Assembly (NCBI GenBank): GCA_965116795.1 | Contig: OZ220716.1 | Coordinates: 2,122,503-2,186,502 of the forward strand | DNA length: 64,000 bases | Reading direction: 5' to 3' | Source: Gammaproteobacteria bacterium | Lineage (GTDB): Bacteria > Pseudomonadota > Gammaproteobacteria > JAJFKG01 | Shown: positions 56,401 to 56,992 of the stretch, piece by piece | Layout of the letters: each line of letters begins with the position of its first letter | How positions within the stretch are numbered: the stretch's first letter is position 1 | Position numbers and translations under genes: made by a program | The notes under the pieces: model-generated | Told to the model about the DNA's origin: nothing | The model's database searches: none | Seen by the model: only the letters and a program-made list of their open reading frames with translations

Positions 56401-56971
56401 CTTTGTGACTTAACCAACGCTTTACAATCTTTACCTTCTCGGCAGGCGGACTCTTGTCATCCATCATGATAATACCCGCCGTTTGACCTAAGCTGATGTA
56501 TTCACGCTCTAACTGTTCTTCCGTCTCTGCATTAAACCACGCACAAAAAACATAACGTGACATAATCGCTTCATTCTGAATATAGTCTGTTGCAAGCTGT
56601 GTCTTACCAATACCCCCTAACCCCTGCAGGGCAGCAGCCGATAAGCGTGCTGCTGATAGCACCACTAGTTTATCCCCTGCTTGCTCAAACGCGGCATTTA
56701 ATTCTTCAACCTTTTTCGGACGCTCAACAAAACAAGATACCCTGGGTGGGAAATTTCCCCATTCCTTAAGCTCCGAAGGTGTTTTTAGTTTTACCGGCGG
56801 ATAGTGCTTTTGTATTGTTACCAAGCTTGTATCTTTAACAACAACGTCTTTTACTTTTGCGCCCATTTCGGCAAATGTCGCGTGAATATTAATAACGCTA
56901 CCATCTGTTTCCTTTATTATTTGTCTAGCTGTATTTGTTTGTTGGCTCACCGTATGGCTGCTAGTTGCCAC
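53480..56971 (-). CDS. NLR1: NB-ARC/STAND NTPase plus TPR array; possibly translated as -1 fusion to the upstream ORF
   Basis: GLGGIGKT Walker A, WLLVYDN Walker B, ILITSR, LPLALAQAGAY, 42-aa TPRs. Confidence 0.9.
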   Translation of the reverse strand: MATSSHTVSQQTNTARQIIKETDGSVINIHATFAEMGAKVKDVVVKDTSLVTIQKHYPPVKLKTPSELKEWGNFPPRVSCFVERPKKVEELNAAFEQAGDKLVVLSAARLSAAALQGLGGIGKTQLATDYIQNEAIMSRYVFCAWFNAETEEQLEREYISLGQTAGIIMMDDKSPPAEKVKIVKRWLSHKENHGWLLVYDNVTEATSVKKYIPSKGGHILITSRKATWVDAKVIEVPLFTDEEARELIIRQSGCEAEEPALTNLIEELGHLPLALAQAGAYIKVKLGHYKTPIAEYLSLYLHNKEERLKDDTLRQETLLDTHESVHITFDMNFKELPPESLKTLYHCGLLASEPIPIDIIKESMKVGVEEAKEQEAVKYNEVFDEALFELNKYSLLAVDAKKQIVSLHRILKVLMQARFEHLSGVERGLRWFEVTTSMLTHSEERNPSMQEVKRRTDLTVHLQEVSDVFDELESAIDKEQTSEVKINKDVLQLWAANLYSELGDEYYTMGDVIRAGARWERALRIDEAHYGQDHWQVASTLVNLANAFGALGDAQTKKTLLERALAIKEEHYGKDHWQVASTLVNLANAFGALGDAQTKKTLLERALAIDESHYGKDRWQVAITLGGLANAFSALGDAQTQKTLLERALAIKEEHYGKDHWQVASTLVNLACAFGDLGDAQMQKMLLERALAIEEKHYGKDHWQAAITLVNLACAFGDLGDAQTQKTLLERALAIEEKYYGKDHWQVASTLVNLACAFGALGNAQTRKSLLERALAIQEEHYGKDHWQVAITLGGLANAFGALGDAQTKKTLLERALVIQEEHYGKDHWQVAITLGSLANAVGALGDAQTQKTLLERALAIQEEHYGKDHWQVAITLGNLACAFGALGYAQTKKTLLERALAIQEEHYGKDHWQVAITLVNLANTFGALGYAQTKKTLLERALAIQEEHYGKDHWQVASTLVNLANALGDAQTKKTLLERALAIKEEHYGKDHWQVVITLGSLANALGALGDTQTQKTLLERALAIKESHYGQEHPSVALTLGHLAMAYKALGQIELGLSKMERAHRMIKSCSGYEQHPHTLWMERCIKQLNKDMQASSKDSATKVSVAQLSGIFHKEKEESGFASPLASEETSEELEKTKEKNLADAGQKQGVIGSGLGLQG
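53912..55414 (-). repeat. 12 near-identical 126-bp TPR-coding repeats (one with 9-bp deletion)
   Basis: ERALAIxExHYGKDHWQVAxTLxxLAxAFGxLGDAQTxKTLL units counted by hand. Confidence 0.93.
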
Positions 56972-56992
56972 CGATGAGCTAATTACTTTTTT
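56945..56992 (-). promoter_or_regulatory. Putative -1 programmed ribosomal frameshift cassette, copy 1
   Basis: A_AAA_AAG then 6 nt (TAATTA) then GCTCATCG-GTGGC-loop-GCCAT-A-CGGTGAGC; -1 frame open into NLR1. Confidence 0.75.

Follow-up and report, generated by a model that had tools for sequence, protein, structure and literature searches.

Are the two overlapping genes at this locus translated into separate proteins, or are they joined by the ribosome? The window, a 64,000-nucleotide stretch of a gammaproteobacterial genome (G000; a single contig of 2.45 Mb, 41% G+C), carries on its minus strand a gene for a putative effector (effector 1) whose end overlaps, in the -1 relation, a long ORF for an NLR (NLR1; Table 1). 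The sequence-only reading of this DNA had proposed that a -1 frameshift signal at this junction, here called J1, fuses the two. We put a probability of roughly 0.8 on J1 being a programmed -1 frameshift site that would give a free effector and an effector-NLR fusion. As judged from sequence, the recoding-type signal is real, intact, and conserved, and every comparative test came out in favor of the programmed reading. The label "effector" fared less well, as it reflects gene position and the 696-aa protein has no family or fold match; it is used below for a putative role.

Table 1. Features at junctions J1 and J2 and in the genes they connect (positions in the window).
Feature	Position	Strand	Remark
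J1 SD-like motif AGGGG	57009..57013	-	17 nt upstream of heptamer, at the edge of the 6-17 nt range; motif list from PMC4066793
J1 slippery heptamer A_AAA_AAG	56986..56992	-	last two codons of effector 1, in phase
J1 spacer, 6 nt	56980..56985	-	opens with 0-frame stop TAA (56985-56983)
J1 hairpin, 35 nt, 8 + 5 bp, bulged A	56945..56979	-	contains both -1-frame GTGs (56971, 56950)
Effector 1 ORF, 696 aa	56983..59073	-	helical core ~aa 235-490, two beta-rich pseudo-repeats, small helical C-terminal domain
Effector 1 beta-rich pseudo-repeats, two (~aa 497-578)	57340..57585	-	candidate amyloid-type signaling motif
NLR1, -1 frame	53480..56992	-	linker, one motif copy, NB-ARC (~56638-56117), DUF7779, TPR repeats
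Beta-rich motif, single copy, NLR1 N-terminus	56822..56881	-	5/200 shuffles vs effector 1; z 5.1 vs effector 2
J2 SD-like motif AGGGG	62532..62536	-	14 nt upstream of heptamer
J2 slippery heptamer A_AAC_CCC	62512..62518	-	paralogous pair
J2 hairpin, 6 nt past heptamer	62474..62505	-	outer 8 bp and bulged A as in J1, inner stem differs
Effector 2 ORF, 618 aa	62506..64000	-	start just outside the window; effector 1 paralog, 46% identical
NLR2, -1 frame, 971 codons from heptamer	59603..62518	-	motif copy, NB-ARC, TPR; predicted fusion 1586 aa

The elements of the J1 signal were recovered as first described. The heptamer lies on the minus strand directly before TAA and in phase with the effector 1 ORF, and the two-stem hairpin that follows the spacer folds at -19.2 kcal/mol (z -4.96), a stability equaled in 0 of 200 shuffles. 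The -1 frame, claimed to run stop-free into NLR1, stays open over 1170 codons, beginning at the heptamer and ending with the stop at 53480. The earlier product sizes of 696 and 1864 aa were reproduced from the ORFs, the predicted fusion comprising 696 + 1168 residues. Its description as a minority product is unproven, since an E. coli heptamer of the same class reached 54% with a strong stimulator (PMC4066793); the slip rate here could be anywhere from ~1% to tens of per cent. An Rfam scan of positions 52000-64000 returned no family at E values up to 1.

The arrangement agrees with what is established for E. coli, where the three best motifs include C_CCA_AAG and A_AAA_AAG, stimulators begin 5-8 nt after the heptamer, and slipping depends on Lys-tRNA(UUU); published signal criteria specify a stem 4-10 nt downstream with a G-C opening and at least 7.6 kcal/mol, plus an optional SD-like motif 6-17 nt upstream (PMC4066793). 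By the dnaX/IS3 stem criteria, J1 has a stem of sufficient stability at 6 nt, and its heptamer belongs to the efficient class V_VV.A_AA.R. The upstream SD-like stimulator is a feature absent from the sequence-only reading. This genome has one tRNA-Lys gene, with anticodon ttt (UUU), and no CUU isoacceptor for AAG. J1 thus shares with dnaX and IS3 an X_XXZ_ZZN heptamer of the most efficient class, a 3' stem 5-8 nt on, an SD-like motif, and a single Lys-tRNA(UUU). From the motif, the stimulator distance, and the sole Lys-tRNA, we infer tandem slippage, bypass of the stop, and fusion. By analogy with E. coli dnaX/IS3, the ribosome would pause at the stem, aided by the SD-like motif, and two Lys-tRNA(UUU) would re-pair one base back at the last two codons. 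Slipped ribosomes would skip TAA and read the linker, NB-ARC, and TPRs, while the others would terminate. On this scheme the NLR half would be produced chiefly or solely as a fusion, in a fixed ratio to the free effector.

Whether NLR1 has a start of its own bears on the chief rival, reinitiation by translational coupling, in which ribosomes at the effector stop melt the hairpin and restart at a hidden GTG to give two separate proteins, as ordinary effector/NLR pairs do. Both candidate GTGs were said to lie inside the hairpin without a clear SD, and this holds: with the genome's own anti-SD, those at 56971 and 56950 pair at only -0.4 and -2.3 kcal/mol, against medians in this genome of -5.8 for the best start of long ORFs and -1.8 for internal GTGs. 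The first ATG of the NLR1 frame is codon 43 and likewise lacks an SD. A -1-frame GTG does sit in the 3' arm of the stem at J1 and at the two junctions described next (J2 and J3), overlapping the 0-frame TGA at J1 and J2, as coupling would have it. In addition, 42% of collinear Bell/NLR pairs overlap (10.1101/2020.01.06.895854), and NLR1 and NLR2 each have their own motif copy and could function unfused. NLR3, the NLR at J3, has no such motif, which argues the other way. We regard coupling as unlikely, and return to it below. Readthrough of the effector stop codon was discarded, since at both J1 and J2 a TGA within the stem closes the 0 frame.

A paralogous effector-NLR pair upstream in the window has its own junction, J2, whose hairpin is also unusually stable (z -5.3 against shuffles). 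The J1 and J2 heptamers differ, yet their 6-nt spacing is identical. Between the two stems all 13 pairs are kept, two having changed on both sides, one on one side, and none being broken; with two sequences this covariation alone is not significant (108 of 500 shuffles reach it), and slid partners pair at 19-44%. A third junction, J3 (genome position 2267303), has C_CCA_AAG, TAA, and a weaker stem opening with the same bases as J1 and J2. It connects a 680-aa ARM_5-like effector (effector 3) to NLR3, a NACHT-pentapeptide-WD40 protein (NACHT and pentapeptide assigned by eye, WD40 by Pfam), both unrelated to the J1/J2 pairs. Stem stability at J3 is modest (z -1.75, equaled in 13 of 200 shuffles), and no SD-like motif lies upstream. 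The heptamers of J1 and J3 fall within the efficient E. coli motifs; A_AAC_CCC of J2 falls outside them.

These junctions stood out in genome-wide scans. Among 188 gene pairs overlapping in the -1 relation, scanned blind, 20 had in-phase heptamers, and the best three stems were those of J2, J1, and J3. Among 1716 ORFs of at least 150 aa, an in-phase heptamer lies no more than 6 nt from the stop in 26; five of the 26 also have, at 5-7 nt, a stem folding at -10 or better, and in three of these five the -1 frame is open for at least 150 codons. The full signal is therefore found in 3 of 1716 ORFs, namely J1, J2, and J3, all effector-NLR junctions. A loose genome-wide pattern search for the J1/J2 stem found J1 and J2 as the only real copies, the remaining matches being due to chance.

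A fourth junction, J4 (position 1201520; L012:6442-8606, or ~1200.4-1202.6 kb of G000, minus strand), joins an MLKL_N effector carrying a double beta-rich motif to a NACHT-HEAT protein, with C_CCA_AAG, a -1 overlap, and an open -1 frame. Its heptamer lies 48 nt before the stop, no stem is present at 5-9 nt (z +0.6), and the NLR contains a second frameshift inside NACHT, so J4 may be decaying. A strong stem with a T-rich tail, terminator-like by eye, occurs ~85 nt downstream of the J4 heptamer. It lends something to the idea that the hairpins act on transcription or RNA stability, as a pause, terminator, or processing site, with the heptamers incidental. We consider this idea quite improbable, as no U-run follows the stems of J1, J2, or J3, and in-phase heptamers, which occur at 0.5% of codons in this genome, nevertheless precede every such stem at stimulator distance.

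A homopolymer error in the assembly had been named as a check on the J1 reading. Contigs from 4 of 4 runs compared, belonging to three studies (X2, X4, X5, and X6; contigs, not raw reads), bridge the site unaltered and gap-free, with the proviso that the X1-X4 study may itself be the origin of the window. J3 was confirmed by contigs of X1 and X3, and contigs were unchanged across J1, J2, and J3. A mistake in assembly, or the recent loss of one base that inactivated a formerly fused gene, is largely refuted and in our estimate highly improbable. Broken NLRs do exist here, NLR3 being cut by an IS66-like element and the J4 NLR having its second frameshift, but J1 is identical across the three studies, both of its halves are long intact ORFs, and three junctions with three heptamers are all -1 at the same distance from a conserved stem.

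We searched 400 genomes of the class with NB-ARC, MLKL_N, and NACHT queries, and metagenome contigs with a NACHT alignment. Six further non-self junctions were found, four in three gammaproteobacterial families other than this genome's (G091, G048 twice, and G049) and two on metagenome contigs (L088 and L126). G091 couples an MLKL_N effector to NB-ARC through C_CCA_AAA, 6 nt, and a stem of -18. The G048 junctions (L076 and L077) link lipase effectors to NACHT through A_AAA_AAA or A_AAA_AAG with stems at 7 and 6 nt, which are weak (z -1.8 and +0.1). G049 has C_CCA_AAG in the same upstream context as J4 and a stem of -12.7, L126 has G_GGA_AAA and a stem of -13.7, and L088 has G_GGA_AAT, a stem of -23.5, and its first Met at -1-frame codon 330. 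On the same contig, a second, similar effector copy begins after the effector-frameshift-NACHT cassette of L088 (L088:1527-9010).

Across these sets, nine junctions have an in-phase heptamer 5-7 nt from a stem, which coupling leaves unexplained. An ATG in the stem region at G091 and G048 L077, and a further ATG with a strong SD at codon 49 of G091, would suit reinitiation. It fails, on the evidence of the reading frames, at L076, whose NLR frame lacks a start throughout its initial 80 codons, a stretch that includes a motif copy, and at L088, where the initial 59 codons contain none. Slippage during transcription of the A-run, by which an added base would fuse the frames in RNA, is extremely improbable. 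J1 has six As, and G091 and G048 L076 have seven, but J2, J3, G049, L088, and L126 have no long run, more than seven As are required according to PMC3711429, and a stem at 6 nt would be needless. Six of 10 junctions have an SD-like motif 6-17 nt upstream, compared with 129 (9%) of the 1387 ORF ends in this genome, a comparison that overstates the enrichment, the junctions being non-independent.

The surveys also indicate how common the arrangement is. From 78 NACHT loci came 62 distinct P-loop ORFs, 51 of them with a closed 5' end. Of these 51, 12 were overlapped by an upstream ORF in the -1 relation, one in the +1 relation, and 38 by none, so that most related NLRs are without such a partner. 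The 12 include two query loci (L136 and L153), and only L088, L126, and L150 are new finds; six besides J4 are without the full signal. Not counted were L094 (no heptamer), L144 and L147 (short upstream ORFs and no good stem), L162 (J4 itself, with no stem), and L089, L095, and L100, which by eye resemble eukaryotic intron junctions. In the last three, an ORF that is ADP-ribosyltransferase-like by eye overlaps a NACHT ORF by -1 and ends CAA AAG TAG; this is probably a eukaryotic intron, yet an A_AAG tetramer adjoins the stop. The NB-ARC survey gave 27 non-self loci, 23 with a closed 5' end, of which two had a -1 overlap of at least 80 codons (L029, with the full signal, and L039) and one a +1 overlap.

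In-frame fused relatives of the split genes are a second feature that coupling leaves unexplained. In G049, the split copy (L166; 926 + 1612 aa) has three in-frame paralogs. One of them, the single 1919-aa ORF L167, matches both halves of L166, with 95% identity over 448 aa in the upstream half and 86% over 1086 aa in the downstream half; another (L169) keeps C CCA AAG in frame and has lost the stem. In the present genome, a 1562-aa paralog of NLR3, 84% identical to it across the NTPase region, carries at its N-terminus ~115 aa, absent from NLR3, that are in frame and homologous to the end of effector 3 (E 5e-9). For the J1 pair, a word-based protein search, a weak test, found no in-frame fused homolog. 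The 1562-aa NACHT-WD40 gene sits in a three-gene cluster without a frameshift signal (L002:4717-12241 and L014:8452-13578; G000 ~2324-2337 kb, minus strand), together with a 693-aa ARM_5-like paralog of effector 3 and a 1708-aa NACHT protein. All three share a Gly/Asn-rich motif region, N-terminal on the NLRs and C-terminal on the effector. A separate 1871-aa all-in-one NLR (L013:6922-12537) consists of lipase, NB-ARC, and three near-identical TPR blocks.

Pfam assigned NLR1 an NB-ARC domain (25.8 bits against a cut-off of 23.5), DUF7779, and ten TPR_10 stretches, and the order of an NB-ARC NTPase followed by a repeat sensor is that of a bacterial NLR-like STAND protein. Effector 1 is present as a 696-aa entry in a protein collection. 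It matched no Pfam or PADLOC family, effector 2 likewise has no Pfam family, and PADLOC gave partial repeat matches alone and no system-level match. The full-length AlphaFold model of effector 1 was set aside (pLDDT 41.9), and a model of its core (pLDDT 57) had no Foldseek match to a solved fold at E 0.001. That model shows two identical three-strand units in the repeat region, where pLDDT is mostly under 50. The internal repeat of effector 1 was equaled in 0 of 100 shuffles and that of effector 2 in 31 of 100.

A representative search with effector 1 returned 15 proteins, 13 of them non-self and 273-978 aa long except for one 97-aa piece. The helical core is common to these 13, most of which have beta-rich tails by eye, and Pfam found no NLR domain in the 12 scanned. 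Three homologs (P0003, P0005, and P0006) end in Lys-Lys, as do effector 1 and the G091 effector, which hints at the same slip site. Genomic homologs of effectors 1 and 2 were found neither in 40 relatives nor, with a 13-row profile, in 399 other genomes of the class. On metagenome contigs, 432 pattern matches yielded no confirmed case, and word-based protein searches, which are weak evidence, returned self alone or nothing among longer proteins. Viral contigs gave nothing for the NB-ARC or MLKL alignments.

The beta-rich motif shared between effector and NLR was equaled in 5 of 200 shuffles for pair 1, 3 of 200 for pair 2, 1 of 200 at J4, and 7 and 4 of 200 at the G048 junctions, which involve MLKL-like and lipase effectors. 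By the same comparison it is absent at J3 and G091, and by eye none is evident at L088. On these data, the frameshift signal appears more general than the motif.

In bacteria, -1 frameshifting has been described chiefly in mobile elements and phages, with a few cases in chromosomal genes (PMC3711429, PMC4066793). Unlike dnaX and IS3, where the product is a polymerase subunit or a transposase, the signal described here lies in chromosomal immune-type genes and recurs with differing heptamers and stems between unrelated effector and NLR types. The orfA and orfAB frames of IS3 give a short 0-frame product and a long shifted one. J1 resembles them in that its 0-frame product is short and its shifted product long.

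The collinear, overlapping genes are also reminiscent of the HET-s/NWD2 and Bell/BASS pairs (10.1101/2020.01.06.895854). A candidate beta-rich pseudo-repeat, with two copies in the effector and a weakly similar one at the start of the NLR, may follow the HET-s/NWD2 pattern, and as in Bell/BASS, MLKL-like and lipase effectors occur at related junctions. That work treats two-component and all-in-one systems as separate architectures, whereas in the present case a single locus would provide both; its main text has 0 mentions of "frameshift", and gammaproteobacteria, the host group here, are termed NLR-poor there. Unlike Bell/BASS proteins, effector 1 is not Bell/HeLo by Pfam and continues for ~120 aa after its repeats. 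A Bell/HeLo/MLKL-type domain was lacking in effectors 1 and 2 and present at J4 and G091 only (MLKL_N). The motif matched no Pfam family for BASS1-10, HRAM, or RHIM, a comparison confined to Pfam. We do not file the system as a BASS member because effector 1 lacks the effector domain and the motif is at most a candidate. The effector-STAND NTPase-repeat sensor order of bNACHT proteins (10.1101/2022.07.19.500537) and the Avs survey (PMC13581612) would be rebuilt by fusion at J1. In contrast to the present case, "frameshift" in the available text of those two papers refers only to phage genes; an anti-phage role here is putative.

What the fusion might do can be outlined by analogy. The NLR would sense a ligand and oligomerize, and the oligomer would recruit and activate the free effector pool by way of either the effector copy fused to it or the beta-rich motif that both proteins share, leading to arrest or death. 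We give even odds to such HET-s/NWD2-type recruitment of the free effector by the NLR as a cause of cell arrest or death. More tentatively, and at slightly less than even odds, a portable slip cassette could be a general, repeatedly re-made wiring that connects any effector to any NLR and supplies both the two-component and the all-in-one form. A few effector-bearing receptors would then nucleate a large free-effector pool via prion-like repeats, and loss of the cassette by deletion would leave an ordinary fused NLR.

The proposed frameshift would put a known mechanism to fresh use in immune-type genes of a known class, as what appears to be a recurring design in which a small cassette (~90 nt) links at least four effector types to three sensor types. 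If the reading is correct, many loci now annotated as an effector gene plus an NLR gene are described wrongly and produce unrecognized fusions. Translation would then fix the ratio of effector to sensor, and a single locus could supply both of the NLR architectures so far described as alternatives. We found no published description of -1 frameshifting joining effectors to bacterial NLRs in full-text searches judged on titles and abstract openings, which left subscription literature largely outside; material relevant to this point could lie in the BASS supplements or in the cluster tables of PMC4066793 and PMC3711429.

The surroundings of these genes contain several further features. A large serine-recombinase-like gene with small flanking ORFs (L001:13375-15655) lies just upstream of effector 2, a position suggesting that the NLR cassettes border an integrated element. 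Between NLR2 and effector 1, the spacer (window 59425-59560) matches several other contigs of the same runs with differences, so it contains a repeat that is also present elsewhere in the genome. IS66-like elements cut the WD40 tails of NLR-like genes twice, at NLR3 (L003:4251-8161) and in the window (41784-45831), where 284 aa remain with 60% identity to the tail of the 1562-aa NLR and the element itself has a second IS inserted. The genome is rich in proteins with eukaryote-like domains (MLKL-kinase, SEL1-like, WD40, and TPR), and this domain content suggests a host-associated life. Between 1.10 and 1.55 Mb (L058, L066, L068, L071, and L072), at least five tandem pairs occur in which a kinase gene precedes an MLKL_N-kinase-SEL1-like gene; three of the kinase genes end, by eye, in an SH3-like tail, and the layout resembles RIPK/MLKL.
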